Both the position numbers and the translations under genes were made by a program. From an uncultured Candidatus Saccharibacteria bacterium (GTDB lineage: Bacteria; Patescibacteriota; WWE3; UBA101185; UBA10185): a stretch of 64,000 bases of DNA. The notes below the pieces were generated by a model. That model had not been told where the DNA came from, searched no databases, and worked only from the letters and a program-made list of their open reading frames with translations. This document shows positions 882-39,751 of the stretch, one piece after another. The DNA lies in contig CAYLMU010000001.1 in NCBI GenBank assembly GCA_964385105.1, forward strand, positions 66,252 to 130,251, read 5' to 3'. The stretch's first letter is position 1. Each line of letters starts with the position of its first letter.

Positions 882-990
882 TTCTAAAGTTATGGATGGT
901 AAAGAAGGTTTAACTTCTGCTATAATTGGTGTAGTTTTTGTGTTACTATCTATTTGAATTCTACGTGTAGTAATAGCAAATTTAAGCAAT
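882..990 (+). pseudogene. Remnant 3' fragment of a VirB2-like pilin gene: a diverged duplicate of 1852-1960.
   Basis: The first 50 bp are identical to 1852-1901 at an offset of exactly 970 bp; the remaining ~60 bp are ~63% identical. In the pilin frame it reads SKVMDGKEGLTSAIIGVVFVLLSI then a stop; there is no start codon. Confidence 0.4.
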
Positions 991-994
991 CATT

Positions 995-1963
995 ATGATA
1001 AAGAAAAAAATTACCATATTTTTTATTTCAGCATTTATACTTACACTTGCTCATAAAAATTATGCTTTAGGAGCAGCAGCATTAAATATTAATCCAACAT
1101 CATGTAACAGTGATACCGGTGTAAAGTTTACCTGGCATGCATCAGGGAGCATTTTGAACCAGATTTATTTAGCGTGGGACTTTTGTGTTCCTACTATACA
1201 GGGAGGTACTTTATCAAACGGATGTGATAGCAAAGACGCTAGAAAAATTGGTGACGGAGATTTTTCAGTTGCTGATTCAGATGAGTATGCTGCCCAATGT
1301 GGAAATCAGGTTACACAATGTACAGGGTCAATAGATGGACCTAATTCAGGAATCGATGACGGACAGGATGTTTATTTAACTGTTACATACAATCTCGTTG
1401 ACGGTGGTAAGTATTATACAGACACACTACACTCACATTGTGAATTTACTACTAACACCGCATGCGTTGATGTAGGAGAACCGTGTGGAATGAACGTAAC
1501 ATGTTGCGGTGAATTTTTAGTATGCGATTATCGACAAGATAATACTTGTGAAGTTATTACAAACGTTTTAGCAGGAGAAGCAGGTGACCCCTGCGGGCCA
1601 GACCGTGCACCTTGTGAATCTGGTTCATGTGTTGAAGGTGTATGCCAAGGCACTGACCCCGATAAAGATCGTGATACTGATAAAAAATTTGATCCCACAT
1701 TATGGAGACAAGATTATGACGGTAAGATTGTTGACTTTGAAACCCTCCTTCAAACTATATATGGCTTATTACTTCCTATTGGCATTGGGCTCATTGCCAT
1801 ACCCCTTATTATCATCAACGGATACAAAATTATGACTAGCCAAGGTGATCCTTCTAAAGTTATGGATGGTAAAGAAGGTTTAACTTCTGCTATAATTGGT
1901 TTGCTATTTATTTTATTATCTATTTGGATAATTAGAATAGTAATTGCAAACTTCTTGCAATAG
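995..1963 (+). CDS. Pilin-fusion protein: signal peptide, a ~230-aa Cys-rich (about 19 Cys) extracellular domain, and a C-terminal VirB2/TrbC-like two-helix pilin module.
   Basis: N-terminus MIKKKITIFFISAFILTLAHKNYALG looks like a signal peptide. Cys-rich motifs include CGMNVTCCGEFLVCDY and PCGPDRAPCESGSCVEGVC. The C-terminus has two hydrophobic helices split by the loop SQGDPSKVMDGKEG, as in the downstream pilin paralogs. Confidence 0.6.
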   Translation: MIKKKITIFFISAFILTLAHKNYALGAAALNINPTSCNSDTGVKFTWHASGSILNQIYLAWDFCVPTIQGGTLSNGCDSKDARKIGDGDFSVADSDEYAAQCGNQVTQCTGSIDGPNSGIDDGQDVYLTVTYNLVDGGKYYTDTLHSHCEFTTNTACVDVGEPCGMNVTCCGEFLVCDYRQDNTCEVITNVLAGEAGDPCGPDRAPCESGSCVEGVCQGTDPDKDRDTDKKFDPTLWRQDYDGKIVDFETLLQTIYGLLLPIGIGLIAIPLIIINGYKIMTSQGDPSKVMDGKEGLTSAIIGLLFILLSIWIIRIVIANFLQ

Positions 1964-1985
1964 TTTATTTATTTAGGAGCAAATA

Positions 1986-2366
1986 ATGCTTAAAAGAGTA
2001 CATGCCCAAGTACCAACAGACATTCAAGACCCGTTGGCCGGACGTTACACCTCGCTTGCTCAAATATTTGGACTTATTACAAATATAGTTATTGGTGTAG
2101 GTGTAGCTTTAACAGTAATATTTTTGATTTTAGCAGGTATACAATACATCACCGCCAAAGGTGATACCAAAGCTGCTGATGCTGCAAGGTCGTCATTAAC
2201 AAATGCTATTATAGGTTTTGTTATTGTTATTGGTGCTATAACTATTAAAATTATTGTACAAAACTTATTAAATGCAGATAACGTAAGTATAGATGGCGTA
2301 ACACCAGGTTCGGGAGGAGGAAGTGGTGCACCACCAATACCACCACCACCAATGCCCAAGCCTTAA
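1986..2366 (+). CDS. VirB2/TrbC-like pilin paralog 1, with a Gly/Pro-rich C-terminal tail (GSGGGSGAPPIPPPPMPKP).
   Basis: RBS AGGAG lies upstream. It has two TM helices separated by a charged loop (KGDTKAADAARSS). The core is near-identical to 2416-2772. Confidence 0.6.
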   Translation: MLKRVHAQVPTDIQDPLAGRYTSLAQIFGLITNIVIGVGVALTVIFLILAGIQYITAKGDTKAADAARSSLTNAIIGFVIVIGAITIKIIVQNLLNADNVSIDGVTPGSGGGSGAPPIPPPPMPKP

Positions 2367-2415
2367 TTTAGGTATACAAATTAGTTTATTAAAGTAAAGG
2401 AGGTGTAATCAAAAA

Positions 2416-2772
2416 ATGTTAAAACTTATAAAACAAGCACATGCCCAAACACAAGGACAAGTACAAACATCTGTTACAGACCCATTAGGAACTAGATTTG
2501 GAAGTGGTACCACATTAGCAAACATATTTGGACTTATAATTAACATAGTTATTGGTGTAGGTGTAGCTTTAACAGTAATATTTTTGATTTTGGCAGGTAT
2601 TCAATATATTACAGCACGAGGTGATACCAAAGCTGCTGATGCTGCAAGGTCGTCATTAACAAATGCTGTAATTGGATTTATTATAGTTCTGGGCGCATTG
2701 ACAATCAGGTTTATTGTACAGAACTTATTAAATGCAGATAACGTAAATATTGAGCAGGTAACAGACTTCTAG
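2416..2772 (+). CDS. VirB2/TrbC-like pilin paralog 2.
   Basis: Strong RBS AAAGGAGG at 2394-2401. About 145 bp (2524-2667) are ~88% identical to 2064-2207, with two perfect 47-50 bp blocks. Confidence 0.6.
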   Translation: MLKLIKQAHAQTQGQVQTSVTDPLGTRFGSGTTLANIFGLIINIVIGVGVALTVIFLILAGIQYITARGDTKAADAARSSLTNAVIGFIIVLGALTIRFIVQNLLNADNVNIEQVTDF

Positions 2773-2804
2773 TAAAGTGCTGCAACGAAAAGAGCGTAAT
2801 TATT

Positions 2805-3125
2805 ATGGATTATATTAACAATTTAAGTAGTAGCCAGGATCCCAGTAGTGGAATGACTGCTTCAACAATGGGAGAATTAATGGGAGTTGTTTTAAACATT
2901 CTCATGGGTTCTGCTATTGCTATAAGCGTCATATCCACTGGGATTGCCGGTATAAAATATATAACAAGCAAAAGCGACCCCAAGGCAAGGGACAGCGCAA
3001 AAAATGCTTTAACGTATGCAGTTATTGCTTCTATTCTCGCCATTGGGGCTTTTGCCGTGAAATTAGCAGTATTAAGTGCTTTCGGAGCCAACGGTGTAAT
3101 TACTAATGGAGTTCCCAATTTTTGA
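2805..3125 (+). CDS. VirB2/TrbC-like pilin paralog 3 (diverged).
   Basis: Same architecture: helix, KSDPKARDSAKNALTYAVI loop, helix. Confidence 0.5.
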   Translation: MDYINNLSSSQDPSSGMTASTMGELMGVVLNILMGSAIAISVISTGIAGIKYITSKSDPKARDSAKNALTYAVIASILAIGAFAVKLAVLSAFGANGVITNGVPNF

Positions 3126-3582
3126 TATACTTAAAAAAAGCTTTATTGCAATTTTATTTGCAACCGTGGTAATCAGTATACAAAACCCGGCTTATGCACA
3201 ATCAGCAGATTGTGTTGGGTATGATCCTAATGACGTAGCATCATTAGCACAAATTGTTTGCCCTGCTGCAAGGTTAGTTAACATTTTATTATACTTTGCT
3301 GGAGCTGTATTTGTTGCAATGATATTTGTAGGTTCTATTAAATATGCAATGTCGCTTGGTGATCCAAAAGGTGCAATAGGTGCAAATCAAACATTAACCT
3401 ACGCTGTAATCGGGCTTATAGCAGTATTGGGAGTATTTTCTATCCTTAATATTATCGCACATCTTTTAGGCCTTACAAATATAGAAAGTTTGAATGTTTT
3501 CAAAACTATTCAAACTAGAATATGTGATTTTCTCATTAGTAATGGTGTCGTAGAGGACGGTGCTAAGATTGCCGGTTGTTAA
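3106..3582 (+). CDS. VirB2/TrbC-like pilin paralog 4, with signal peptide and a longer C-terminal extension.
   Basis: Signal-like N-terminus ending AYAQ; the pilin core is LGDPKGAIGANQTLTYAVIGL flanked by hydrophobic helices. It overlaps the previous gene by 20 nt. Confidence 0.5.
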   Translation: MEFPIFDILKKSFIAILFATVVISIQNPAYAQSADCVGYDPNDVASLAQIVCPAARLVNILLYFAGAVFVAMIFVGSIKYAMSLGDPKGAIGANQTLTYAVIGLIAVLGVFSILNIIAHLLGLTNIESLNVFKTIQTRICDFLISNGVVEDGAKIAGC

Positions 3583-3583
3583 A

Positions 3584-4060
3584 TCAATACGGAACAGGCT
3601 CGTTAGAAATATCTGGGGGCGTGTTGAGATACACATAGTTGATTGTTTCGTTTAGATAATTTCCGTTTACACTTCTTAGAGCAGTTATTTTTAATGTATA
3701 TTCCTGATGATCTTCCCATCCCATGCCTCTTGGAACAAACTTCACTATGTTTGGGTTACTTTCATCGTTTACTATGGAAAATTCCATGTTTGGTTCTATT
3801 GTATATCTAATGGAATTGGATATTATCGGTTCAGAAAATTCAAACCACAAAATTTCATAATCACTCAAAGACTGTGAGCTTCGTTCTGGTGGTGTAATCG
3901 CAATCAAACTTAATTCGGACTCTTTCACAGTATAAGGAGTTTCAATGTCATTATACCTATTAAAATCAATAAAATACGCAATAAATACTAATATTAAGAT
4001 TATAAGCACTATTAAATAGCTTTTGTTGCCTTTAATGAATATGATAAGTTTTTTTGTCAT
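3584..4060 (-). CDS. Bitopic membrane protein: N-terminal TM anchor plus a ~120-aa beta-rich ectodomain. A speculative T4SS assembly factor (VirB8-like role).
   Basis: N-terminal hydrophobic segment YLIVLIILILVFIAYFI. The functional call rests on context only. Confidence 0.4.
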   Translation of the reverse strand: MTKKLIIFIKGNKSYLIVLIILILVFIAYFIDFNRYNDIETPYTVKESELSLIAITPPERSSQSLSDYEILWFEFSEPIISNSIRYTIEPNMEFSIVNDESNPNIVKFVPRGMGWEDHQEYTLKITALRSVNGNYLNETINYVYLNTPPDISNEPVPY

Positions 4061-4093
4061 ACGCTTTATTTTAAAGTATACCCCTTTTACATA

Positions 4094-7000
4094 TTATTTA
4101 CATATGTAATCTTCCGGTCTCGCAGGAATAAAATCACCAGGCCCATTAGGTAGAGCCATTTCGAAGTGAACATGTGTGTTATTTCCCCAATCATATAATT
4201 CAGCTGCAGCATCTCCCGGTTTTTTTTCTCCGGTGTAAACAGTTCCTACATGCAATAAAACTAAGATTACTTGTGGATTTCCACGCACGTCAAGTCCCGT
4301 TACAGTAGTAACATTTCCCACATTGCTTGCCCGGGGAGAGGAGACTTGCCAAGTGGTAATACCAGTCATTTCAGGCAAAAAAATCGTGCCACACCCTAGA
4401 GGATGTACATCTTCAGCATACCCATAATATTCGGATTCAGGTGGTGTATTCAAACACTTATTATTTGGTGCCTCGGTGGCAATAGGACTCTTCGGATATG
4501 GCGAAACATATGCAGGTATCGGAAAGCATTGGCCTAAAGAACCGGGTATAGTACTCCAATAAAGATTTGACCCGTGCCTACTAGCTTGTTCCTCATTATT
4601 AATGTAAGATCTTTGCCAAACAGTATAACCTTCTGCAAAGACACACCCGTTAAGACTCTTAACATCTACACTGTGGAATCCACAACGTCTATATTCGCCA
4701 CCACCTTCACTTCTTATGTCACCACCACCAACACCACCACCAATTCCAGCAATAGGATTCCTTTGGGGAATTGCCGTTGTAAAAGCTCCGCCCAACAATA
4801 ATATTAATAAAATAAGACACCCCACAGGTATCCCAACACCGTAAAGCAACGTTTTTGTCATGTAATCATAAGTTTTATCCCATGATTCAATCAGTTGACT
4901 AAAATCACCTTTGAAAAACGCTTTGAACGTTCCTTGTGCGGTATCCATAGTCTTAATCAACACTACATACATTACTTTTCTTACTATTGGTACTAAAAAT
5001 TCAACCAGCGGAGAAGCCACCCCGGCAGTTGCTCCTTCCGCTATTGAAGCTAACAAACGTGCAGTAACCCGGGAAATACCGTCCACAACTCTGTTTGCCA
5101 CAATGCTTTTAATATTAGAAGCAGAACTAACGAGTCGGCCTGCTCGTGTTGTGGTAAACCAATGCTGAAGGTTATTAAGTTTTTCATTAATCTTTTCAAG
5201 GATACCTACGTATCGACGCGAAGGTTTCAATGCACCCCTGTTGTCGACTTTGGTATAAAAAATTCTTTTAATAAAACCCGCCATAATTCCGGGGTCGGCA
5301 ATATCAGCAGCACTAAAACCAAATTTACCGTGATTTTTTGACATCCAATCTTTGAATTTCTGCAAGTTAAAATAAATGGCATCAAATTCGGCTCTCTTAA
5401 ACGGTAAAGTGCCATATCTAGCCGTTAAACTGGCATATAAGGCGTCTAATCCTGCGGTATCACCAATACTCACTCCAGCATGAAGTAATTCTTCGAATGC
5501 TCTAATATCCAACTTTCCGGTGGATAAAGCACTTCCAATGTCTTCAATGATTTTAAAGTGTGAGCCAGCAGTAACATTTCTTAATGCAAAATTTCTTCCT
5601 CCTGCTTCAAAATTTACGTTAAATTTATGCTCAAGCGGTTTAAGTAAAAGAGATCCTAATCCGCCGGCCGTACTTCCCGTGAGTTTAAATCCCCAAAAAA
5701 ATGCGATTCCATTGTCGTCTGCGTAATCTTTGTTTACAACAAAACCTAACCGATGTACTCGGGTCAAAAATTTATTTGACCAATAGGCAGGTGTTAAAAC
5801 TTCAATCCTGTTTTTAAATCTGGGCCACAAATAGGTACTTAATAAGCGCTTTCCTTCAAAAGCTCGTAAAAGCTCCTCTGCAGCAGCATAATCTCTTTCC
5901 TGCTCCAATCTTCTAAAAATAGTTCTTAGTTTTATAATATTATCTGTACCTGTAAAAGCGTCGTTTTCCTCGTTTCGTATATCACGCTCCATATCTCGTA
6001 AAAGTCTTCTATTAACACTCCTGCTAAAAGGATCCCCACCAGCAAGACCTCCTCTGCCAAATATATTTCCTCTACTGCCCACATTTACTATGCTGTTTCT
6101 TGCTTCCGCTATATTTTTAGTTAGTTCGGCTCTAAGAACCAATGACGGTTGCGCTGTTCCCAATCCATCAACCTTTCTTGCAATATCTGCGACATCGCTA
6201 CCGACAGCAACAAATTTATTTAAATCTTCCAAGTAAACTTTGAATGGGTTTATGACTGAGCGTCCTAATCTACGCTGTATAGCTAAACCTTCTGGTGTGT
6301 TATTAAGTTGTTGTAAGAAAGTTTCTGCCTCTCCAATTTTTGCCCTTATAACATTTAAATCAGCTGTGTTTGGGGCATCTTTTATATTTCCCGTGAGTAA
6401 AAATGTATCAAGTTTTTCTTGGAGCGAAGTTTTTTTACCGCCGCTTACTAAGCCTTCATAATCTACAGCCTTTTGTAAAGATGAAATCTTCTCATGAAGC
6501 TCATTTTTTAGTAAAAACATTTGAGCTTCAGGAGTATACGAGGCAGGCGTGACATTTTTTTCTAAATCAGCTTTAAGAGCCTTTGCTGCCGAAGATATAA
6601 CTGCATCATACTTATTTTCCCGTAGAATAACGTTTCGTGAATTTACTTGAAATGATAATATACTATGTTTTAACTTCCTGTATTCACCAATGTCGGGATG
6701 ATCCAAACTTAAGGGGTTGGCAGCAGCATGTACCGCACCGGCAGCTCCAGATCCGTCTAATCTTTGAGCCAACGAGGTTGTTGCCTCATGTTGCAAAGCA
6801 ACATCAATCTCATCAAACTTTTCCTGAAGCCTGCGAATTGGTCTCAGTCTGGACTTATTTCTTGCAGTCCTGTAGATATCAACATCACTCAATACATTTT
6901 CCCACAACTGCTCCCTATTTAAAGTGTCAAAATCGTCCCAGTCGGCTATTGCTTTAAACCAATCCTTTACTGTTTTTTTAAATTGCTCTCCCGGGTCACT

Positions 7001-7330
7001 TAACCAGTCGTTAGGATTTAAGCTAATTGAAATACCAACGGCACCGGGCAAGTCTTCCATAGCCTCGGGTCCGTACAGTTCTAGGGCTTCCGGACTGACT
7101 TCCTTAGTTGGTTTAATTTGAGCCTTTAGTGAACTTTCAAAATCTTTTTTAATTCTTTCAATAAACCATGCCGGAATATCTGTATCTTTTTCGAATGTAT
7201 TAAAAAATTTGCCAAAATCCAATAAATCCAAATCAGGGTTACCTGTAAAACGCCGGCCTCCTGAAGGTCTTTTATATAAAGGTCTGTCTCCTGGGTAATA
7301 CCCGAGATAAAACGGATTTGAACTTGCCAT
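4094..7330 (-). CDS. Large (1078-aa) protein: a ~800-aa N-terminal domain with no signal peptide, a single TM, a Gly-rich linker, and a C-terminal papain-fold cysteine peptidase (CHAP / NlpC-P60 superfamily) cell-wall hydrolase domain.
   Basis: TM segment VGIPVGCLILLILLLGGAFTTAIP. Candidate catalytic Cys lies in GQCFPIP or LGCGTIF, and the His in the VILVLLHVGTVYTG motif. Gram-positive T4SSs carry CHAP/NlpC hydrolases (PrgK/TcpG/TraG-like). Confidence 0.55.
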   Translation of the reverse strand: MASSNPFYLGYYPGDRPLYKRPSGGRRFTGNPDLDLLDFGKFFNTFEKDTDIPAWFIERIKKDFESSLKAQIKPTKEVSPEALELYGPEAMEDLPGAVGISISLNPNDWLSDPGEQFKKTVKDWFKAIADWDDFDTLNREQLWENVLSDVDIYRTARNKSRLRPIRRLQEKFDEIDVALQHEATTSLAQRLDGSGAAGAVHAAANPLSLDHPDIGEYRKLKHSILSFQVNSRNVILRENKYDAVISSAAKALKADLEKNVTPASYTPEAQMFLLKNELHEKISSLQKAVDYEGLVSGGKKTSLQEKLDTFLLTGNIKDAPNTADLNVIRAKIGEAETFLQQLNNTPEGLAIQRRLGRSVINPFKVYLEDLNKFVAVGSDVADIARKVDGLGTAQPSLVLRAELTKNIAEARNSIVNVGSRGNIFGRGGLAGGDPFSRSVNRRLLRDMERDIRNEENDAFTGTDNIIKLRTIFRRLEQERDYAAAEELLRAFEGKRLLSTYLWPRFKNRIEVLTPAYWSNKFLTRVHRLGFVVNKDYADDNGIAFFWGFKLTGSTAGGLGSLLLKPLEHKFNVNFEAGGRNFALRNVTAGSHFKIIEDIGSALSTGKLDIRAFEELLHAGVSIGDTAGLDALYASLTARYGTLPFKRAEFDAIYFNLQKFKDWMSKNHGKFGFSAADIADPGIMAGFIKRIFYTKVDNRGALKPSRRYVGILEKINEKLNNLQHWFTTTRAGRLVSSASNIKSIVANRVVDGISRVTARLLASIAEGATAGVASPLVEFLVPIVRKVMYVVLIKTMDTAQGTFKAFFKGDFSQLIESWDKTYDYMTKTLLYGVGIPVGCLILLILLLGGAFTTAIPQRNPIAGIGGGVGGGDIRSEGGGEYRRCGFHSVDVKSLNGCVFAEGYTVWQRSYINNEEQASRHGSNLYWSTIPGSLGQCFPIPAYVSPYPKSPIATEAPNNKCLNTPPESEYYGYAEDVHPLGCGTIFLPEMTGITTWQVSSPRASNVGNVTTVTGLDVRGNPQVILVLLHVGTVYTGEKKPGDAAAELYDWGNNTHVHFEMALPNGPGDFIPARPEDYICK

Positions 7331-7393
7331 AGAATAATTCTATAATGAAAGGGCTTTTACTGAAAGAGTAGTCGTGATAAAATTCTTTTAAAC

Positions 7394-8818
7394 ATGCTCG
7401 GTAAAACATTTATCAAAGTCGGAATAACATTTACTTTTTCTTTATTATTAATAATATTGGCAACATCTAAAACTTATGCTCAAGATTCAGTATGTACCCC
7501 AAGTGAGGGTTTATACACAAGAATCGTCCAGGCACTTGATAACCTGGACATTAGAAGAACAACGGTTAACTTTTTAGTCTCGGCTGTGACAGATGTTCCA
7601 CTTCAAGCTGCCGCCAACGGAACACAGGATGACATTTTTCACTGTATGGGTTATATAGCAACTATGAACGCTGGAGGTAATCAGGGAGGAAGCACCGGTG
7701 CTGATGTATTGGCAAAATTGGGTTTATCTACTGATGGCTGTACCCCTGATGAGGATTACTGTGAAGCTTTGTTTAATACTTATGAGGATGTAAGGATACA
7801 ATCCGGAGCCAACCCGGCTTCCGTGGCCTTTTATAATAAACGGGCAAATAGTCGTGTGTCAGGCAGCCTTGTGGGACTTGTAAATATGGCTGAAAATGCT
7901 ACTTATCAGCCGGTTCCAGTGAACCTTGCTTTTTATTTTAACAAAGAAGCACAAAAGTTACCTTTTGTGGGCACAGCGTTTGCACAAACTGCAGGAGACT
8001 TTACAGGGCCGTTTTTAAACTTAACATACGATCTCTGGAAAATATTTAGAGATGTAGCATACGGAGTTATGGCAGTAATCATGATTATAGTGGGCATCAT
8101 GATTATGACAAGAAAAAAGTTGAACCCTCAAACAGCGGTAACTATGCAGTACGCTCTTCCCCGAATAATAATAGCTTTAGTTTTAATAACTTTTAGCTAC
8201 GTAATAGGAGCCACCATTGCTAGTACAGCCTGGGTTCTAAAATTTAGCGCAGATAAAATTATTATACAACTCTTTATAGATTCTCAGGCTCAAAGTACAC
8301 AACACGTAAGCTTCATGTATGCAGCCGGCTTTATGGTGACTTTAGTTATTGGGGTTATTATGATGTTTACAAGCGGTGTGGGAGTAGTGTATGCGGCACT
8401 TTTCATTGTTGGATTTATATTAACTTTAATAACTTTCCTTATCGTATTTCTTAAAATGTTGATGCTGTATTTACGCATGTTAATTAATATAATTGCGGCG
8501 CCTCTAACGTTCACCATGGCAGCGCTCCCCGGTAAAGATGATATGATGATGAACTGGTTTAAACAGATGCTTGTATATACTTTATCAATTTTTGGAATGA
8601 CCGCTGTCATATCAATTACAAGAATTGTAAGTGCTGTTATGCTGTTAAATATAGCGGATAATGGTGGTAACACTATATTTGACGGTGGAAGGGGAGCAGG
8701 AGCTTTCTTAGTCTTTGGCCCGATATTACTTTTCATTATTCTAATATACGGATTGAATACTGCCAGAAAATTACCAAACAAAATCGAAGCCGCCATCATG
8801 GGTCCCAAAAAGCGCTAA
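7394..8818 (+). CDS. VirB6/TrbL-like polytopic membrane protein: signal peptide, a ~200-aa extracytoplasmic domain, and 5-6 TM helices.
   Basis: Signal peptide ending TYAQ, then multiple long hydrophobic helices in the C-terminal half. Assignment rests on T4SS context and topology. Confidence 0.45.
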   Translation: MLGKTFIKVGITFTFSLLLIILATSKTYAQDSVCTPSEGLYTRIVQALDNLDIRRTTVNFLVSAVTDVPLQAAANGTQDDIFHCMGYIATMNAGGNQGGSTGADVLAKLGLSTDGCTPDEDYCEALFNTYEDVRIQSGANPASVAFYNKRANSRVSGSLVGLVNMAENATYQPVPVNLAFYFNKEAQKLPFVGTAFAQTAGDFTGPFLNLTYDLWKIFRDVAYGVMAVIMIIVGIMIMTRKKLNPQTAVTMQYALPRIIIALVLITFSYVIGATIASTAWVLKFSADKIIIQLFIDSQAQSTQHVSFMYAAGFMVTLVIGVIMMFTSGVGVVYAALFIVGFILTLITFLIVFLKMLMLYLRMLINIIAAPLTFTMAALPGKDDMMMNWFKQMLVYTLSIFGMTAVISITRIVSAVMLLNIADNGGNTIFDGGRGAGAFLVFGPILLFIILIYGLNTARKLPNKIEAAIMGPKKR

Positions 8819-8887
8819 ACAAGCATCCGCAGTATAAACACATAACATAATTGCCTAATAAGCAAATACCCCGTAAAATAAGACCAA

Positions 8888-10621
8888 ATGCCCATTAACG
8901 ATGTACAAAAAACCAATAAACAACACGCTGTACCTCAAAACATAATGGATGTTGAATTCAAAATAATAGGGGATCTTACTATGCGGCAGTTTTTTTACCT
9001 TTTGGTTTTTTTTGGATTTGCATATTCTATTTTTACTTTGTATAACGGTTTTCTTAAATGGCCATTAATTTTATTTTTAGTATGTGCAGGGTTGGCATTT
9101 GCCTTTTTGCCAATAGAGGAGAGAAGTCTAGATCAATGGGTTGTTAATTCATTTAGGGCCATTTATAAAGACACACAATACGTATGGCGTAAAACCCCTG
9201 AAATACCTCCGGCATTTTCGTTTGAAAATATGAGTGTTGTTAAACAAGAATTAATTACTTTAACACCTACATCAAGTAGAAGAAAGCTTGAAGAATTTTT
9301 AGAAGCTCAAACAGATAAAACCGTTATCGACCCTTTGGACATTCCGGAAGTTTCTTATATAAAAATGGTTAGACAGGGGTTTAAAAATGCCGCGCCGGTA
9401 ATAGAAGTGGAAGGTGAGGTTGAACCAACATTTCCGGCATATGATGAGTCTGCCAAAAATCAGGCACAATCTTCAGAAGAACCAACACAAAACGTTCCTG
9501 TGCAAGAAGTGCCACTACAAACCCCGTCAACATCTACACCTGCACCTATACAACCGGAACCTGCTAAACAATCCATATCCACTGACACACCAAAACAAGA
9601 TCAGCCACAACAAAAACCCACAAAACCTCCTGAAGAGAAAAAGCACCATCACCCATCAATAAAACTTCCAAAACTTCCTCATGTACCACGTCCGCTATTG
9701 CCAAAACATGTAGATGAACCTATTGAGGTATCAAAAGGGCCATTCCTTGCACCGATTACGCCCGATCAGCACTCAGGCCGAAAATTCACAAGTTTATTAC
9801 CAAAACAAGGGGAAATTATCTTGCCAATCAGAGGAGAAACGGTAATACAAACTACGGAAGAGGCGGAAATTGAAGAAGATATTGAAGAAAAAGCAGAACA
9901 ATTAAGAAAACTTTTATCTCATATACGACAAACCGAAAATATTCCTGAAACCACAAGAATTGAAAGCCAAATTGAAGAGAAATCTATAGACATAAAACCA
10001 GATGAAAAAGAAGCAATACAGCCCGAAGTTCAAGACACACTCGAGCAATTAAAAAGAGACAATGAAAGATTAAAAAAAGAAATTGAACAGTTAAAACGCG
10101 AAATAACCAAACCTCAAACATCAACCGAAAGGTCTGAGAAAATTACAACGTTAAAGCGTCTTGAACACGAACAGCATGAAAAAGAAGAGGCATATTCTTT
10201 GATTAAAAATAAACTTTCAAACATCCAGGAAAAAATATTTGTAAAACGTCAACCTGAATCTGAAAATATAAGTAATGAAAATGACGTACAGGAATGGAGT
10301 ACGCCTTCTAATGCAGTTGAACCTACATATGCTAAAATGAAACCCTTAAACGAAACACCGAATTTATTATCGGGTGTAGTTGTTGACCCGGCAGATAAAA
10401 GACTTGAGGGAATAATTTTAATAGTTAAAAATAACAAAGACGAGCCGGTTAGAGCTTTAAAAACAAATCAAACCGGACAATTTAGCATAAGCACACCGTT
10501 AGCTAATGGAGTTTATACTGTTGAAACAGATAAATCGAAACGAACTAACTATACCTTTGATATAATTAAAATCGTTACAAAAGGAGAGGTAATCCCTCCT
10601 ATAGAAATAAAAGGAAAATAA
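8888..10621 (+). CDS. PrgI/VirB3-like two-TM N-terminal domain fused to a Pro/Gln-rich linker, a coiled coil and a C-terminal beta-sandwich (carboxypeptidase-regulatory-like) domain.
   Basis: The N-terminal motif IIGDLTMRQFFYLLVFFGFAYSI, followed by a second TM, resembles the PrgI family. Also present: a low-complexity PTKPPEEKKHHHPSIKLPKLP region, a coiled coil LEQLKRDNERLKKEIEQLKREI, and a C-terminal GVVVDPADKRLEGIILIV beta domain. Confidence 0.45.
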   Translation: MPINDVQKTNKQHAVPQNIMDVEFKIIGDLTMRQFFYLLVFFGFAYSIFTLYNGFLKWPLILFLVCAGLAFAFLPIEERSLDQWVVNSFRAIYKDTQYVWRKTPEIPPAFSFENMSVVKQELITLTPTSSRRKLEEFLEAQTDKTVIDPLDIPEVSYIKMVRQGFKNAAPVIEVEGEVEPTFPAYDESAKNQAQSSEEPTQNVPVQEVPLQTPSTSTPAPIQPEPAKQSISTDTPKQDQPQQKPTKPPEEKKHHHPSIKLPKLPHVPRPLLPKHVDEPIEVSKGPFLAPITPDQHSGRKFTSLLPKQGEIILPIRGETVIQTTEEAEIEEDIEEKAEQLRKLLSHIRQTENIPETTRIESQIEEKSIDIKPDEKEAIQPEVQDTLEQLKRDNERLKKEIEQLKREITKPQTSTERSEKITTLKRLEHEQHEKEEAYSLIKNKLSNIQEKIFVKRQPESENISNENDVQEWSTPSNAVEPTYAKMKPLNETPNLLSGVVVDPADKRLEGIILIVKNNKDEPVRALKTNQTGQFSISTPLANGVYTVETDKSKRTNYTFDIIKIVTKGEVIPPIEIKGK

Positions 10622-10622
10622 C

Positions 10623-11321
10623 ATGCCCATGATTAAAGCTACTACACAACAACATCTCGATATTGAAGACATTAAAGACAACATGGTTATTTTAAAAAAC
10701 GGGGCTGTTAGTGTAGTTCTTGAAACAACAGCCGTTAACTTTGACCTGTTATCCGAAATTGAACAAGACGCTATGATTGCAGCATTTTCTATGTTGTTAA
10801 ACTCAATATCGTTTCCAATTCAGGTTGTTGTGAGATCAAAAAGACTTGATATAACAAAATATCTTGAAAAAGTGCATAGGGTAGAGCAAAAAATAACCGA
10901 CCCGCTTCTTAAAATCCAGGCTCAATATTACCGCAAATTCGTACAGGAAGTTATTGAAAAAAATGATGTATTAGATAAAAAATTTTATGTGGTTATAAGC
11001 TATGGAGGCTCAGGTACGGTACAAACAGGCAAAAACCCGTTTGACTGGGTTTTGGTTTTGTTTGGTCTGCACAACCGTCGCACAAATGTAGACGTGGAAA
11101 GTGTTTTGCAAAAAGCACGTACAGATTTGGGGCCAAAAATTGACCACGTTTCTGCGGAATTTAACAGACTTGGAGTAAAAACCCGACAATTGAGCACACA
11201 AGAGTTGGTTGAATTATACTTTGATATATACAACCCAACAACGCTACACGGCCAAAGAATAAGAACAAGTGTAAGTGATTATAAAACAGCAATAGTAAAT
11301 CCTGCTATAGTTGAGGAATAA
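10623..11321 (+). CDS. VirB4 N-terminal-domain-like protein (232 aa): either a separate ORF or the split 5' part of VirB4.
   Basis: The motif HLDIEDIKDNMVILKNGAVSVVLETTAVNFDLLSEIEQDAMIAAFSMLLNSISFPIQVVVRS resembles the extreme N-terminus of Gram-positive VirB4 proteins. Its stop lies 2 nt before the next ATG, in the -1 frame. Confidence 0.45.
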   Translation: MPMIKATTQQHLDIEDIKDNMVILKNGAVSVVLETTAVNFDLLSEIEQDAMIAAFSMLLNSISFPIQVVVRSKRLDITKYLEKVHRVEQKITDPLLKIQAQYYRKFVQEVIEKNDVLDKKFYVVISYGGSGTVQTGKNPFDWVLVLFGLHNRRTNVDVESVLQKARTDLGPKIDHVSAEFNRLGVKTRQLSTQELVELYFDIYNPTTLHGQRIRTSVSDYKTAIVNPAIVEE

Positions 11322-11323
11322 AT

Positions 11324-13312
11324 ATGAAAATACCTGCAGTAACTTTATTTAAAAAAAAGCATAAAGAACAACCTGATACTCAAGCACAAGCACAAGTCAC
11401 AGAACCTGCAAATCAAAAAAAGCCTGCTGAAGTTTTGGCTGAAGGAATGATTAACGTAAAAGACATTATTGCGCCGCCGGCAATTGAAGTTGATTTTAAT
11501 TTTTTAAGGATAGGCAATACTTATTACAGAACTTTGTTTGTATCAGGTTATCCAAGGTTTGTGGGCGCCAACTGGTTATCGCCTGTGATTAACTTTGACC
11601 ACTCTCTTGATCTTTCAATGTTTTATTATCCTGTTGAATCAAAAGGAATTCTTGATGACTTAAGAAGAAAAATTACCGAAATGGAAGCTACAAGCATGTC
11701 TAATAGAGAAAAGGGTAAAATTAGCGACCCTACAGTAGAAATTGCATTAGGGGATGCTAAAGCTTTGCAGGAACAATTGGTAAAAGGTGTTGAGAAATTC
11801 TTTCAGTTTTCTTTTTATATCACTATACCCGCCGACTCGCTTGATGAACTTGAAAAAGTAACTAAGAAGCTTGAAGCCACACTCGGCTCACTTTTGTTAA
11901 TTTCAAAAACATCTACATTACAAATGGAAGACGCTTTTCAATCAACAATTCCCGCTGCCATGGATAAAATGCTTATCACAAGAAACATGGATACTACCAG
12001 TTTAGCTACAACATTTCCATTCACATCATCCGACCTTACATCAGACGAAGGAATAATGTACGGAATAAACAGGCACAATGGGTCATTAATTGTTTTTGAC
12101 AGGTTTTCGCTTGAAAATGCAAATAGTGTAGTATTTGCTAAATCCGGTGCCGGTAAATCATACATGATAAAACTTGAAGCATTGCGATTGATGGTATTTG
12201 GAGCAGAGATACTAATTATCGACCCCGAAGAGGAATACAGAGCATTGTGTGATGCTGTAGGGGGTAATTATATTAGCTTCGCAGCAAACTCCCCATCAAA
12301 AATAAATCCTTTTGACCTATCGGGAATTGCAACTGAAGGTGAAAACGAATTGGGTCAAAAACTTTTATCTTTACACACACTATTTAAGCTAATGTTGGGC
12401 GATCTTAATCCAACAGAAGAAGCGTTACTTGACCGTGCTTTAATGGAAACTTACAGAATAAAAGGTATAACAACCGATCCTGATACACAACGTTCAAAAG
12501 AGCCTCCAATTATGGAAGATTTATATAAAGTGCTGTTAGGAGCTGAAGAACCCGAAGCAAGAAGTATGGCTGAAAGACTTGAAAAATACATTAAAGGTTC
12601 GTTAACAGGTATATTTGACAATCAGTCCACAGTTAACCTCGGCAGTAGAATGACGGTATTTTCAACACGTAATCTGGAAGATATATTAAAACCCATTGCC
12701 TACTACATAATTCTTGATTTTGTGTGGACAAGAATTAAAAAGGATTTAAAAAAGCGTATATTAATTGTTGAAGAAGCATGGTCTTTGCTTCAAGACGAGG
12801 ACAGTGCAAGATTTTTATATGGTGTAGCAAAAAGAGCTAGAAAATACTATTTAGGTCTTACAACCATTACCCAGGACGTCCAGGACTTTCTAAGTTCTGA
12901 TTTTGGGAAAGCTATTGTTACAAACTCATCCATACAAATTTTATTAAAACAGCATCCGGCCTCAATTGACCAAATAGCCGAAACATTTTACCTATCTGAA
13001 GGAGAAAGAAGACTTTTACTATCTGCAGATAAAGGTGAAGGATTATTTTTTGCAGGTTCAAATCACGTTTCAGTTAAAGTAAAGGCTTCTGACGCTGAAC
13101 ATAAATTAATAACTACAAACCCGCAGGAAATTCTTGAAATGAGAAATGAACAGATTAATAAAGCTTCTGTTGATTTGCAAAAACCTGTTTACAAACCGTT
13201 TGAGCGCTTTGAGAGTAGCAAATATGATGAAATCGAAACACCACAGCAAAACCCGCAAACAAACAATGAACCAAACACTTTTCCTCAAAATCCCGAAGAA
13301 CAGTTAGCTTAG
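11324..13312 (+). CDS. virB4: VirB4/TraE-family T4SS ATPase.
   Basis: Walker A FAKSGAGKSY, a Walker B / DEAW-like motif ILIVEEAWSLL, and an N-terminal VirB4 signature IAPPAIEVDFNFLRIGNTYYRTLFVSGYPRFVGANWLSP. Confidence 0.75.
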   Translation: MKIPAVTLFKKKHKEQPDTQAQAQVTEPANQKKPAEVLAEGMINVKDIIAPPAIEVDFNFLRIGNTYYRTLFVSGYPRFVGANWLSPVINFDHSLDLSMFYYPVESKGILDDLRRKITEMEATSMSNREKGKISDPTVEIALGDAKALQEQLVKGVEKFFQFSFYITIPADSLDELEKVTKKLEATLGSLLLISKTSTLQMEDAFQSTIPAAMDKMLITRNMDTTSLATTFPFTSSDLTSDEGIMYGINRHNGSLIVFDRFSLENANSVVFAKSGAGKSYMIKLEALRLMVFGAEILIIDPEEEYRALCDAVGGNYISFAANSPSKINPFDLSGIATEGENELGQKLLSLHTLFKLMLGDLNPTEEALLDRALMETYRIKGITTDPDTQRSKEPPIMEDLYKVLLGAEEPEARSMAERLEKYIKGSLTGIFDNQSTVNLGSRMTVFSTRNLEDILKPIAYYIILDFVWTRIKKDLKKRILIVEEAWSLLQDEDSARFLYGVAKRARKYYLGLTTITQDVQDFLSSDFGKAIVTNSSIQILLKQHPASIDQIAETFYLSEGERRLLLSADKGEGLFFAGSNHVSVKVKASDAEHKLITTNPQEILEMRNEQINKASVDLQKPVYKPFERFESSKYDEIETPQQNPQTNNEPNTFPQNPEEQLA

Positions 13313-14433
13313 TTATTAATATGCATGGGAGCCATAACATGCAAGAATACAGTGTTTTCAGCCGGTTTTATTAAACATGGAGTAACATTGTCGTTGGCAT
13401 GAAAAATCAGCTTCTCAAATTTATTGTTTGATAGAAAATCAAGCAAAAATCTAGCGTTAAACATAATTTCCAGCTCCTTTTCCATCTCGCCTAAAACTTC
13501 TGCAGAAAATTCGGTGTGATTTTCACCTGTTTCTTGAGCCGAAGATGTTACCCTTATATAACCCTCAGGGCTAATAATTAATTTTAAAGTATTATTTTCA
13601 TCCTTTTTTGAAAAAACGTGAGTGAGTTTAACAGCCTCAAATAAGTCCTGAGACATAAATGCTGCCTGCACACTTGTTTGGGATGGAATTATACGTTTGT
13701 AATCAGGATACATTCCATCAATAACCCTTGTAGCTATAACCGTATCTTCACATTCAAAAATACACAAATTTTCATTCTCATTAAGATATACTTTTATATT
13801 TTCTCCACAACTGCTAAAAATCCGGGCTGTTTCAAGTAGTGTTTTTGCCGGGAGAATCAACGAGAAACTTTCGGCTTGGGATTCAATATTTAAAATTCGT
13901 TCGCTTAGCCTAAATCCGTCGGAAGCGGCAATATATAAATTACCTTCATTGTAATTTAAGTAAATTCCTGTAAATATAGGCCTTGAACTGTCGTTTGAAA
14001 CGGCAAAGCCAACCTGAGACACAGCTTCTGCAAACTCTTTTGGTGAAATTTCAAATAACGGGTTTGACGTTGTTACTTCAGGCAAAGTAGGGTAATCAAC
14101 CGAATTTATGCCGTTTATTTTAGATTTTGTCTTTCCGGCGGTAATATGCACAATATCGTTTTCCATACTGATTACAACCTGATCGCTTGATAAATTTGAT
14201 ATAAATTCGGAAAGAATCCTTGCAGGTACAGTCACAGAACCTTCTTCTTCAATAGAAGCTCCTACAAATGATGTTATGGTGGTATCAAGGTCGGTACCGG
14301 CAATTTGCAGACGTCCGTCTTTTGAAACTATAAGCACGTTAGACAACACAGGCATCGAGTGCTTAATCGGCACAGCTTTAGATACAATACCGAGACTTTT
14401 AACTAAGTTTTCTTTTAGGCAAGTAAATTTCAT
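13309..14433 (-). CDS. dnaN: DNA polymerase III beta sliding clamp.
   Basis: Colinear similarity to E. coli DnaN along its length (MKFT..., the TDL motif, FPDY-like region). Its stop codon overlaps the virB4 stop. Confidence 0.9.
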   Translation of the reverse strand: MKFTCLKENLVKSLGIVSKAVPIKHSMPVLSNVLIVSKDGRLQIAGTDLDTTITSFVGASIEEEGSVTVPARILSEFISNLSSDQVVISMENDIVHITAGKTKSKINGINSVDYPTLPEVTTSNPLFEISPKEFAEAVSQVGFAVSNDSSRPIFTGIYLNYNEGNLYIAASDGFRLSERILNIESQAESFSLILPAKTLLETARIFSSCGENIKVYLNENENLCIFECEDTVIATRVIDGMYPDYKRIIPSQTSVQAAFMSQDLFEAVKLTHVFSKKDENNTLKLIISPEGYIRVTSSAQETGENHTEFSAEVLGEMEKELEIMFNARFLLDFLSNNKFEKLIFHANDNVTPCLIKPAENTVFLHVMAPMHINN

Positions 14434-17835: not shown

Positions 17836-18257
17836 ATTATCCACAAAAGAACAATAAATATAATGTAAAAGTCTATTATTAATTTTAAATACACCTTTTT
17901 TCAATAAACAATAAAAGTGGATAAAAAGTTGTTAAACATAGGATAAGTACACCAGCAAAAAGAACAACTAGCACGAAGCTGAAAAAAGGTATGGAAAAGT
18001 GCTTAGGTAATCCACCAAGTTATCCACATAAATGAATACTTTATCAACATAAAAATTCATGCTTAAACCAACATCAAAAGCACTTCAATAACTAAGTAAA
18101 ACTGTCAATAAGATATTTGCAACATTTACACACAACACAACACCTAAAAACAAAGCAATAGCAGCAAAATATCACATATACTACTTATACACATGTTCTA
18201 CTATAACTACTTCTTTTTTTATAAATAAATAATACTGATGCTAGAATTGGATAACTT
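17836..18257. promoter_or_regulatory. Putative oriC: AT-rich 420-bp non-coding stretch with clustered DnaA boxes.
   Basis: Perfect TTATCCACA at 17837-17845 and 18020-18028. One-mismatch box aGTGGATAA at 17926-17934. TAATCCACC at 18008-18016. A very AT-rich putative unwinding stretch at 17846-17925. Confidence 0.65.
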
Positions 18258-27518: not shown

Positions 27519-28430
27519 TTGACCTTTCAACAAGATTATTATATATATAAAATACTCATGAGAAAACTCATAATAACTATTCTACCCGTTGTAGTGTTAT
27601 CAATTTTATTTAGTACAAAAGTTACTTTTAAGATTTCTTTTGCTGAGGAAACCTTACAAAATATAAAGTCAAACCAATCAAATGGATTGGACGAAGAACT
27701 TACTCAACAATTAAAGGATAAATATGCTGAAATGGTTAAAGTCTGTGAATCCACGGACGACAATGAAGCGTGTAATGAAGCGCTTAAAGAAACATTGCAA
27801 GGTTTAAAATCTTTGGCATTGGAGCGCATGGAAGGCTCATATAAAAGAACCGAAAATATGGTCGAACGTCTGAAAGCTACACGTGTTTTATCTGAAAAAG
27901 AGCAGATACTTGTCGATGAAACTCTTAATAATCACACCAATTTGGTAAATTACTATACTAATAAAATTGAAAATGCAAAAACACTTGAAGAACTTAATCA
28001 CATTTACCAAGAAAAAATAAATAACAATGATTTAAGAACTGAAATTCGTGAGTTAAATGTACGAAGAACGAATGTAGGATATTTAAACATTGAAATTTTT
28101 ATAAATCGATTAAATGATTTTATAATTCGGGTTGAATCCGAAACAGCGGCAGCAAAAGATTGGGGACATAATACATCAGATGTTGAAAAAAATATAACGT
28201 TAGCTAAAGAAAAGATTTTATTGGCACAAGATATTTTTAATCAGAATTTTAGTGCCTTGGAAGCAGAAATTAATCAAAAGAAATTTACCGATGTTGAAGA
28301 TTCAATAACCCAATTATTGAAAGCAAAAGATTTATTGATAGAGGCAAAAAATGACCTCCAAAAGGCAACTGAGGAATTAAATTCTTTGTATAGAGTATCA
28401 GCTTGGGAAACTCAAGAAAATGCAGAGTAA
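27519..28430 (+). CDS. Hypothetical signal-anchored coiled-coil protein.
   Basis: N-terminal hydrophobic segment, then a long charged coiled coil. Confidence 0.45.
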   Translation: MTFQQDYYIYKILMRKLIITILPVVVLSILFSTKVTFKISFAEETLQNIKSNQSNGLDEELTQQLKDKYAEMVKVCESTDDNEACNEALKETLQGLKSLALERMEGSYKRTENMVERLKATRVLSEKEQILVDETLNNHTNLVNYYTNKIENAKTLEELNHIYQEKINNNDLRTEIRELNVRRTNVGYLNIEIFINRLNDFIIRVESETAAAKDWGHNTSDVEKNITLAKEKILLAQDIFNQNFSALEAEINQKKFTDVEDSITQLLKAKDLLIEAKNDLQKATEELNSLYRVSAWETQENAE

Positions 28431-38707: not shown

Positions 38708-39751
38708 ATGCAAAAAGAGGTAAACGATTATTTACACACACTTTTAAAAGAATTTAAGCCATATCTGCTTACTGAAGAAGACCAGAAAAAAACCGCGCGT
38801 GACAAAGCAGAATTTTTAACCGAAAAGCTCGCTTTGAGCAAATACCGCAAGAGAAAATTAGCTTCAACAACCCGCCAAGCCATATACAACAAAGTAAACA
38901 TGAGTATAGAACAAAACAGGCCATTACATTTTGTTATTCCTTTTGGAGGTTACAAACATTTTTGGAACCCTTCACACCCCGAGCCTGACTGGGCAGAACT
39001 GTTTAATTTTAGATATTTAACCGAATATGTCTCACCGGTGTTAGCAATACACGAACCCGGCGTAATCATTGAGTATGTATCAGAAGATATGATTATGACA
39101 AGAATGGATAATTACCCTCGTGATGTACTAGAAACATATGCGCGTGTTTTTAAAGAGCTTATAAACTGGTATAACAAGCAAACTCCAAACAATTTGGATT
39201 TTAGATATTTTAGGGTTGGCGATAGATGTGACAAAGAAAAAATAATACAAATTGTAGAGGGACTGCTTCCCGAAAGGCGGGCAATGTTTGATAAACTCTC
39301 ACAAAATGAAAAAGATAGGGAGCTTCATAGAAGCAAAAGGTCATTTTATTGGGACGGTGAGTTTGATTTTACACATTTAGATGATGAAGAAAAGTACAAT
39401 AAAATAGTGGAGTCACGTTTGATTGAACTTGCTTATTACGAAACCGAAGGGCTGCCGGAATTTCTGGGTGACTATCTAAGTAACGATGAACATATTTGTA
39501 TACTTTTTTCATTCGGCACCACTCCCGACAATGATGAATTTCAAGGTTTAACACTTGGATCAACGTACGGATCGCTCGTAGATCATTGGATTGGGAGAGG
39601 GGTTTTAGAAAAAAGAGAAAGTCAGTTCTTTCCGCGTATTGTTTCGAAACAGCAGTATGAGGATGCTAAAGAAAATATTATTGAGGTGATTATAGAAGAG
39701 CTACTTCCCTTTAAGAATTATAAGTTTATTGATGTAGTGGATAAGAGATGA
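38708..39751 (+). CDS. Hypothetical cytoplasmic protein (347 aa).
   Basis: Long ORF with coding-like composition; no recognisable domain. Confidence 0.5.
   Translation: MQKEVNDYLHTLLKEFKPYLLTEEDQKKTARDKAEFLTEKLALSKYRKRKLASTTRQAIYNKVNMSIEQNRPLHFVIPFGGYKHFWNPSHPEPDWAELFNFRYLTEYVSPVLAIHEPGVIIEYVSEDMIMTRMDNYPRDVLETYARVFKELINWYNKQTPNNLDFRYFRVGDRCDKEKIIQIVEGLLPERRAMFDKLSQNEKDRELHRSKRSFYWDGEFDFTHLDDEEKYNKIVESRLIELAYYETEGLPEFLGDYLSNDEHICILFSFGTTPDNDEFQGLTLGSTYGSLVDHWIGRGVLEKRESQFFPRIVSKQQYEDAKENIIEVIIEELLPFKNYKFIDVVDKR

Follow-up and report, generated by a model that had tools for sequence, protein, structure and literature searches.

A probable vertically inherited type IV secretion locus of Patescibacteria type beside the replication origin in the WWE3 (Katanobacteria) lineage

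INTRODUCTION

What is the role of a type IV secretion system (T4SS) that lies beside a bacterial replication origin and shows none of the genes that process DNA for conjugation? In this work, we have addressed this question in a 64-kb stretch of DNA (the window; forward strand of contig CAYLMU010000001.1 of assembly GCA_964385105.1, the source contig being ~469 kb long), in which a cluster of pilin, membrane-channel, wall-hydrolase-like and VirB4 ATPase genes occupies positions 995-13312. We favour, with a probability of about three in four, the reading that this locus is a vertically inherited chromosomal T4SS of the Patescibacteria type in the WWE3 (Katanobacteria) lineage, related to the monoderm MPF_FATA conjugation machinery (pCF10, conjugative transposons (CTn) and the integrative conjugative elements (ICEs) of Mycoplasma) and serving as a host contact or transfer machine. 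This reading is carried by the gene set with its family and fold assignments, by conserved synteny and purifying selection, and by the absence of a coupling protein and a relaxase from the 64-kb window. The system as such, its missing conjugation genes and its position at the origin have already been published between 2023 and 2025 (PMC10633639, PMC12102498, PMC12857230).

RESULTS

Gene content of the locus

The original prediction described twelve consecutive genes forming a Gram-positive-style T4SS module. The Pfam and NCBIfam families bear out a monoderm-type T4SS with a pilin array, and the open reading frames (ORFs) are real, but ORF calls and repeat comparison give 11 intact ORFs plus the 3' remnant of a pilin gene at 882-983, not twelve genes. 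Five tandem plus-strand pilin genes (995-3582) are followed by two minus-strand genes (3584-4060 and 4094-7330) and by a plus-strand four-gene operon (7394-13312) coding for the VirB6-like, PrgI-like, TrsD-like and VirB4 proteins:

882-983, plus strand: pilin remnant, a 102-nucleotide (nt) direct repeat with 1852-1953, 84% identical, the first 49 nt being identical
995-1963, plus strand: pilin 1, 322 amino acids (aa); PF18895 31.7 bits, residues 249-313
1986-2366, plus strand: pilin 2, 126 aa, VirB2-like two-helix protein with a Pro-rich tail; PF18895 33.9 bits
2416-2772, plus strand: pilin 3, 118 aa; PF18895 35.7 bits
2805-3125, plus strand: pilin 4, 106 aa; PF18895 25.8 bits (0.8 under the gathering cut-off), NF045849 41.0 bits (above cut-off)
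3106-3582, plus strand: pilin 5, 158 aa; PF18895 17.4 bits and NF045849 17.9 bits, both below cut-off
3584-4060, minus strand: bitopic protein, 158 aa, with a transmembrane (TM) segment at residues 4-37 and a ~120-aa beta-rich ectodomain
4094-7330, minus strand: bitopic protein, 1078 aa (AlphaFold2 model, Foldseek, alignment of its C-domain)
7394-8818, plus strand: polytopic membrane protein, 474 aa (TM prediction, AlphaFold2 and Foldseek)
8888-10621, plus strand: PrgI/VirB3-like protein, 577 aa; PF12666 40 bits against a gathering cut-off of 27, residues 15-91
10623-11321, plus strand: TrsD-like protein, 232 aa (matches to VirB4 N-terminal and TrsD models)
11324-13312, plus strand: VirB4 ATPase, 662 aa, CD1110 / MPF_FATA type; NF045971 377 bits against a cut-off of 325

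The proposed membrane translocon: VirB4 in two pieces, PrgI and a VirB6 candidate

The predicted VirB4 is confirmed by its matches to NF045971 and to P-loop_TraG (E=7e-32); it has the Walker A motif AKSGAGKS at residue 272 and aligns with residues 225-773 of PrgJ from pCF10 (25% identity, E=5e-42). It covers positions 183-735 of the 752 positions of the NF045971 profile, the first ~180 being missing. The 232-aa ORF upstream matches, each time below cut-off, positions 9-122 of the CD1110 VirB4 model, positions 103-233 of VirB4_plasma (E=5e-11) and TrsD NF041427 (E=1e-6), and the precomputed Pfam assignment for a product identical to it is PF26593 TraC-like. Among the relatives, that is, the best 80 genome matches to VirB4 (L001-L080; 44-82% identity), two carry a fused TrsD-like plus VirB4 single ORF that is collinear with both window genes (L055:9350-11719, 789 aa; L057:1659-3977, 772 aa), both from metagenome-assembled genomes (MAGs), where a sequencing error is possible. 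These collinear fusions, together with the profile positions, lead to the conclusion that the 232-aa ORF is the split-off N-terminus of VirB4 and not an extra VirB4-N ORF, as had been proposed. Dozens of species have kept the split form, and the TrsD arrangement has been described for pGO1-type systems and for Patescibacteria (PMC12102498).

The PrgI/VirB3-like assignment of the original prediction stands above the gathering cut-off of PF12666. The protein consists of an N-terminal PrgI TM hairpin, a long Pro/Gln-rich coiled-coil spacer and a C-terminal CarboxypepD_reg-like beta-sandwich (PF13620, 27 bits, below the gathering cut-off, residues 494-557), and its length among the relatives varies between 280 and 890 aa.

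Directly upstream of PrgI, as occurs with prgH in pCF10, lies the gene for the 474-aa protein, in which a signal/TM helix precedes a poorly predicted ectodomain of ~190 aa and about six TM helices. In its AlphaFold2 model (14-sequence alignment) the TM core reaches a predicted local distance difference test score (pLDDT) of 70-90. The six best Foldseek matches of this model among 350,000 PDB chains are T4SS stalk/inner-membrane entries of R388, with 7o3v_F at the top (E=9.5e-3, probability 1.0, TMt 0.51); the best-matching R388 chains, each ~260-270 residues long, are presumably TrwI/VirB6. The VirB6-like channel protein that had been predicted is a likely reading on the basis of this weak fold match and of the gene position, no sequence or profile similarity having been found. 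The same family is also found in Microgenomatia-type loci.

An array of five pilin genes

Five VirB2/TrbC-like pilins had been predicted. Three of them exceed the gathering cut-off of PF18895 T4SS_pilin (26.6 bits) and pilin 4 exceeds the 40-bit cut-off of NF045849, whose name is 'Mbov_0395 family pilin-like conjugal transfer protein' (Mycoplasma ICE type); the count of five holds, with pilin 5 as its weak member. A two-helix topology is common to all. Pilin 5, built of a signal-like N-terminal helix, a pilin core and a C-terminal extension, shares 34-37% identity over 70-81 aa with pilins 2-4. Pilin 1 combines a signal peptide and a ~220-aa Cys-rich globular N-terminal region with a C-terminal T4SS-pilin two-helix module (TM helices at residues 250-281 and 294-322); its head domain has no match among PDB sequences, and with this Cys-rich head the protein may be a candidate tip or adhesin subunit. 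The pilin profile gave chance matches alone in the PDB (designed helical proteins, sensory-rhodopsin transducers).

Among the relatives, arrays of 4-6 genes that start with a long pilin recur, and a last pilin of ~150-165 aa is kept in the WWE3 relatives. Pilins 2 and 3 share 73% aa identity, compared with a within-array maximum of 54% in a survey of the phylum (PMC12102498), and their genes share a 264-nt repeat (2040-2303 / 2500-2763) with 82% nt identity; judged from these identities, pilin 3 is a recent tandem duplicate of pilin 2. This duplication accounts for one extra pilin in the window as compared with the four of the WWE3 relatives.

Just upstream of pilin gene 1, the remnant at 882-983 repeats the 3' end of that gene in decayed form, TGG having become TGA; its conceptual product is MDGKEGLTSAIIGVVFVLLSI and then a stop. 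The loss of an upstream pilin copy, or recombination inside the array, seems to have left this scar.

A bitopic protein with a LytM/M23-fold ectodomain

The 1078-aa protein had been taken for a CHAP/NlpC-family wall hydrolase. This assignment has to be replaced: the protein has no Pfam or NCBIfam match and no CHAP/NlpC signal (Pfam, E<=1), and the fold of its ectodomain is LytM/M23. A helical N-terminal region of ~820 aa, which has no signal peptide and which we infer to be cytoplasmic, is followed by a TM helix (residues 824-857, nt 4760-4861), a Gly-rich linker and the beta-rich LytM/M23-fold ectodomain (residues ~880-1078, nt 4097-4693). The AlphaFold2 model (44-sequence alignment) has a pLDDT of 77.8, with 88-95 in the C-domain, whose Foldseek matches at probability 1.0 are lysostaphin, LysTt72 and EnpA; the structural comparison also includes the LytM domain of PrgK. 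In a profile search with the C-domain against the PDB, M23 proteins only were found (E=0.03-0.11). Alignment of nine orthologous C-domains revealed the invariant residues H42, D97, H150, H176, H178 and E180 and four invariant Cys, the HxH motif (H176-V-H178-F-E) among them. The model and the alignment point to an M23-like domain with a non-canonical first motif, and the protein is likely to be the cell-wall-opening component of the machine.

The C-terminal end is Peptidase_M23 in 4/15 orthologues and CHAP in 2/15, and CHAP replaces the LytM-fold domain in 3/44 family members, all of them distant; the enzyme module is therefore exchangeable. No Pfam model matched the ~820-aa N-terminal region in any of the 44 family members scanned. 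The family comprises 288 representatives at E<=0.001; this depth came from an exhaustive representative search, while word-indexed searches with the single sequence and with the alignment returned the same 4 proteins. As a hydrophobic segment (residues ~250-273) also precedes the enzyme domains of PrgK, the plan of the 1078-aa protein (cytoplasmic part, TM segment, LytM) is PrgK-like. PrgK also carries SLT and CHAP domains; the 1078-aa protein, in contrast, is much longer on the inside and has neither. When the family and its C-domain were compared with PrgK by hhalign nothing significant was obtained, the TM segment alone being aligned.

The 158-aa bitopic protein encoded beside it has no match in Pfam, NCBIfam or the PDB, and has homologues at the same position in L001, L003, L005 and L014. 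To assign it a VirB8-like role would be a guess.

Synteny, selection and mode of inheritance

Most of the best 80 matches carry titles of Patescibacteria or the Candidate Phyla Radiation (WWE3, Curtiss-, Levy-, Shapiro- and Uhrbacteria, Parcubacteria and others), and the closest among them, with 70-82% VirB4 identity, are WWE3/Katanobacteria MAGs. These nearest relatives agree with the episymbiotic small-genome bacterium that had been proposed. The remaining automatic 'Gammaproteobacteria' or 'Pseudomonadales' labels are probably wrong. Many WWE3- or Microgenomatia-like MAG loci bear such titles, or that of 'uncultured Candidatus Saccharibacteria', and these labels, too, are probably wrong.

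The whole order (pilins, bitopic protein, 1078-aa protein, VirB6-like, PrgI, TrsD and VirB4, then dnaN-jag-yidC-rnpA / dnaA-murT-gatD) is kept in L001, L003, L008, L014, L025 and L033, and synteny of the locus is conserved across WWE3 and Microgenomatia. The gene-order comparison with other Patescibacteria loci that had been suggested gave a conserved order in the WWE3 relatives and agreement with the published component set. In other WWE3 sublineages PrgI-TrsD-VirB4-dnaN is retained and the upstream genes differ, so the locus is modular within the class. In these sublineages, the gene before prgI codes for a protein of ~1010-1046 aa or 415 aa (at about 4300-7500 in L006, L010, L019, L030 and L066, and at about 5600-7900 in L012, L017, L018 and L022) with no detectable similarity to the 474-aa protein, and neither pilins nor a homologue of the 1078-aa protein were found within 10 kb.

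The proportion of non-synonymous differences (pN) lies between 0.14 and 0.19 for VirB4 and TrsD, compared with 0.33-0.51 for the envelope parts, with saturated synonymous sites; this is the pattern expected of a functional machine with fast-evolving surface components. Since the locus is syntenic in WWE3 and under purifying selection, we consider it a vertically inherited chromosomal machine and not an ICE. The ICE reading was rejected on the conserved synteny, the lack of integrase and att sites and the purifying selection.

Could the locus instead be a decaying, non-functional remnant of an integrated conjugative element that has no DNA-processing genes? The absence of a type IV coupling protein (T4CP) and a relaxase, the VirB4 in two pieces and the pilin pseudogene fragment at 882-983 are what such a remnant might leave, but 11/11 ORFs are intact, pN is ~0.15 against a saturated synonymous proportion (pS) for VirB4/TrsD, the split TrsD/VirB4 is conserved in dozens of species, and synteny extends across WWE3 and Microgenomatia. 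Moreover, the homologous locus is essential in Southlakia epibionticum (PMC10633639). We regard a decaying remnant as extremely improbable.

Absence of DNA-processing genes from the window

The window holds the core of an MPF_FATA conjugative T4SS, namely VirB4, a VirB3-like protein, a VirB6-like candidate (by a weak match) and a likely wall hydrolase. In line with the original prediction, which saw no VirD4, VirB11 or relaxase, a scan of all window ORFs of >=300 aa and most of those of 150-300 aa detected no VirD4/TcpA coupling protein, VirB11, relaxase or integrase family; recognition of an oriT depends on such a relaxase family. The scanned ORFs otherwise encode housekeeping functions (among them UvrD-type helicases, MetRS, DnaG, RpoD, GAPDH, FemAB, KsgA, GreA). 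The flanks of the locus have no att-like direct repeats, the nearest tRNA is 25 kb away, and no competence genes adjoin the locus. As the genes on either side of the locus run on the opposite strand, its operons cannot continue beyond the window.

These results bear on the possibility that the locus is a genuine conjugation or mobilisation apparatus, with a coupling protein and a relaxase encoded elsewhere and acting in trans. Its VirB4 belongs to the conjugative CD1110 family, the window covers 64 kb of the ~469-kb contig, and 2,918 Patescibacteria genomes have VirD4-like T4CP homologues, in most cases at a great distance from virB4 (PMC12102498). Relaxases, however, are seldom found in the phylum (109 in 103 genomes, 15 of them near virB4), and in S. 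epibionticum the T4CP homologue is non-essential while the T4SS is essential (PMC12102498). In addition, the locus is fixed beside oriC across the whole class and shows neither integrase nor att sites; the top 25 families of the 46 large non-shared ORFs <=10 kb from virB4 in the WWE3 relatives include no relaxase or T4CP, 20 further families lying outside this check. Conjugation in trans is thus, in our estimation, quite unlikely.

Position and orientation relative to the origin

The original prediction placed the locus against dnaN and the origin, head-on to the leftward fork, and called this unusual. The features concerned are the following:

13309-14433, minus strand: dnaN (Pfam), convergent with VirB4, with a 4-nt overlap that includes the VirB4 stop codon
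16402-17835, plus strand: dnaA (Pfam), followed by murT and gatD
17836-18257, no strand: probable oriC, a DnaA-box cluster in an AT-rich gap after dnaA

Perfect TTATCCACA boxes are located at 17837, 18020 and 16403, boxes with 1 mismatch at 17916, 18041 and 18185, and the cumulative GC skew has its minimum at 15-17 kb. From the T4SS locus it is 3.1 kb to dnaA and ~4.5 kb to the DnaA-box cluster. Given the DnaA boxes and the skew minimum, transcription of the pilin genes and of the operon from VirB6 to VirB4 runs towards the origin and meets the leftward fork head-on. The overlap with dnaN, the DnaA boxes and the GC skew uphold the predicted position and orientation, but not the word unusual: the origin-side virB4 is the common arrangement in the phylum, where it has been read as a possible gene-dosage effect (PMC12102498), and virB4 points towards dnaA in 28/29 related loci with a visible dnaA, loci that are not phylogenetically independent. 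This orientation holds across three different dnaA/dnaN/rnpA arrangements, and dnaN is downstream of virB4 in 44/44 loci, being convergent in 39. The head-on orientation seems to be as conserved as the proximity to the origin, and we have not found it stated in the publications cited here.

Other features of the window

After dnaN, Pfam identifies a minus-strand string of jag/khpB, yidC, yidD, rnpA and rpmH. The dnaN gene is detached from dnaA: it terminates this rpmH-rnpA-yidD-yidC-jag-dnaN string, and dnaA stands by itself on the plus strand, ahead of the DnaA-box cluster, an arrangement also kept in the WWE3 relatives. On the other side of the locus, positions 1-861 of the minus strand carry a gene for a secreted coiled-coil protein, cut by the start of the window and divergent from the pilin genes, with homologues in the same place in L014 and L033. 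The ORFs at 43158-44792 (544 aa), 52102-53559 (485 aa), 38708-39751 (347 aa) and 27519-28430 (303 aa) have no Pfam match, and the first three have no NCBIfam match either. An Rfam scan of the window gave no match, and a promoter/terminator scan found fewer promoter-like sites than in shuffled sequences.

DISCUSSION

How does this locus compare with the systems already described? In S. epibionticum ML1 (Saccharimonadia), the T4SS genes SEML1_0006-0019 are essential for epibiotic growth, as determined by transposon sequencing (Tn-seq); the pilin array among them is essential as well, and neither a coupling protein nor a relaxase can be recognised (Wang et al., 2023, PMC10633639). The published tables list PF18895 pilins, PrgI, VirB4, TrbL/VirB6-like and NTF2-like proteins, and SEML1_0007, an essential protein of 1113 aa that ends in a peptidase domain and whose top structural matches are M15B/M23 proteins (PMC10633639). 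The 1078-aa protein of the window follows the same plan. The likeness that we draw is one to these published descriptions and not one of compared sequences. Both clusters have a PF18895 array, PrgI, a TrsD-like protein of ~230-290 aa before VirB4, VirB4, a polytopic VirB6-like protein (a candidate in our locus) and a ~1100-aa protein with a C-terminal domain of peptidoglycan-peptidase type; both are without a recognisable T4CP or relaxase, and both lie at the chromosome start beside replication genes. Gene order and strands differ, since the S. epibionticum peptidase gene comes after virB4 and ours is divergent from the VirB6-like gene. S. epibionticum alone has six pilins, two VirB6-type proteins of ~1000 aa, an NTF2-like (VirB8-like) protein and a separate lysozyme/CHAP protein, which were not found here, whereas our VirB6-like protein is a short one of 474 aa and the fold of our peptidase domain is LytM/M23.

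The survey of the phylum by Quinonero-Coronel et al. (2025) described an MPF_FATA-related VirB4, abundant TrsD, PrgI/VirB3, VirB6, VirB2 arrays of 2-11 genes and very few relaxases, with virB4 near dnaA, dnaN, rnpA, rpmH and ksgA (PMC12102498). Our locus has the same components, VirB6 as a candidate, and no relaxase was found in it; dnaA, dnaN, rnpA, rpmH and ksgA are all in the window; WWE3 is not named in the main text of that survey (PMC12102498). VirB6 homologues were reported there to be scarce in Microgenomatia (PMC12102498), and the 474-aa family is a candidate for the missing, highly diverged VirB6. A 2025 review places the system in the T4SS superfamily (PMC12857230).

Similarly, in the MPF_FATA prototype, the Enterococcus faecalis plasmid pCF10, the order prgH (VirB6)-prgI-prgJ (VirB4) corresponds to that of the 474-aa protein, PrgI and (TrsD plus) VirB4, and the VirB4 proteins belong to the same NCBIfam CD1110 family. 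Unlike our locus, pCF10 has the T4CP PcfC, the relaxase PcfG, the VirB8-like PrgL and LPXTG adhesins, and no pilins. With the Mycoplasma ICE (Mbov_0395, and Mbov_0397 as its VirB4) the locus has in common that pilin 4 passes NF045849, the other pilins being weak matches, and that VirB4_plasma NF045975 matches TrsD (E=5e-11) and VirB4 (E=7e-75; 252 against a cut-off of 590); Mycoplasma ICEs, in contrast, are mobile, carry DNA-processing genes and reside in wall-less hosts. From the matches to NF045849 and NF045975 it follows that small two-helix VirB2-like proteins are not unique to Patescibacteria among wall-less and monoderm T4SSs.

Might the machine take up or release DNA, as ComB of Helicobacter pylori or the gonococcal genetic island (GGI) do, with no relaxase-coupled conjugation? 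VirB4-only systems with VirB2-like subunits do exist for DNA uptake, such as the VirB4-driven ComB, which has no relaxase. The VirB4 of the window has weak NCBIfam matches, far below cut-off, to the archaeal DNA-import ATPases CedB (4e-9) and CedD (9e-6). ComB, on the other hand, belongs to diderms and has a VirB7/9/10 core, and beyond VirB4 no homology to it was seen here; nor do competence genes adjoin the locus. In class ABY1, T4SS genes co-localise with comF, recG and radA (PMC12102498), but competence in S. epibionticum needs type IV pili and ComEC, and deletion of comEC abolishes competence and leaves viable cells, while the T4SS is essential (PMC12857230). From this difference we conclude that the essential role is not ComEC-linked DNA uptake, and for the window locus we hold a DNA-uptake machine to be unlikely. 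The original prediction had favoured a pilus/adhesion or DNA-uptake machine over conjugation; turning away from classical conjugation holds, with no T4CP or relaxase in reach, and the literature has come to the same view (PMC10633639, PMC12102498), but the DNA-uptake part is disfavoured (PMC12857230).

We propose that the WWE3 locus builds a host contact or transfer machine in the following way. The VirB6-like polytopic protein, the PrgI/VirB3-like hairpin protein and the two-piece VirB4 ATPase would form the membrane translocon. The LytM/M23-fold ectodomain of the 1078-aa protein would open or organise the wall at the assembly site, and its large helical cytoplasmic domain would probably dock to the ATPase complex. 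VirB4 may then pull the five VirB2-like pilins from the membrane and polymerise them into a surface filament or conduit, with pilin 1 perhaps as tip or adhesin. Such a machine would serve contact between host and bacterium, or would pass protein or other material in either direction between the two, and would not carry out conjugative DNA transfer.

Several points speak against this proposal. Its role in WWE3 is argued by analogy, this lineage having no cultured member, and in the papers cited here filament formation by the pilins has no demonstration for any Patescibacterium. Pilin 5, with both scores below cut-off, is the least secure of the pilin assignments, and the TrsD-like assignment is weak for the same reason. 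The 474-aa protein has no match by Pfam (19 family members scanned), NCBIfam or PDB profile search, nor by hhalign against PrgH of pCF10, and its fold match is a weak one (E~1e-2, TM-score ~0.5). In the 1078-aa protein, which has no match to PF01551, the contiguous HxxxD motif is absent, and the catalytic competence of its C-domain is a prediction. No VirB8-like component was identified in the locus. Finally, a distant T4CP may be encoded elsewhere in the genome, as in many Patescibacteria, the 64 kb analysed being part of a ~469-kb contig.

A bolder version of the host contact machine can be imagined, in which it exports no effectors and does not conjugate, but is a T4CP-independent conduit through which the epibiont takes host nucleotides, lipids or macromolecules, the multi-pilin filament being the tube and the ~820-aa domain of the LytM-type protein assuming a coupling-protein-like handling or gating of the substrate. 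We consider this speculation unlikely.

What does the locus mean for the biology of these bacteria? The window adds a clean example from the WWE3 lineage and leaves the published picture unchanged. It sharpens some details: a bitopic PrgK-like LytM/M23 protein with a swappable enzyme domain, a 474-aa candidate for VirB6, and a virB4 that is almost always directed towards the origin. In the WWE3/Microgenomatia branch, where VirB6 escapes sequence searches, the 474-aa family is a candidate on structural grounds. Patescibacteria make up a very large and mostly uncultured share of bacterial diversity, and the T4SS belongs to the small number of machines that have proved essential to them for living on host cells.

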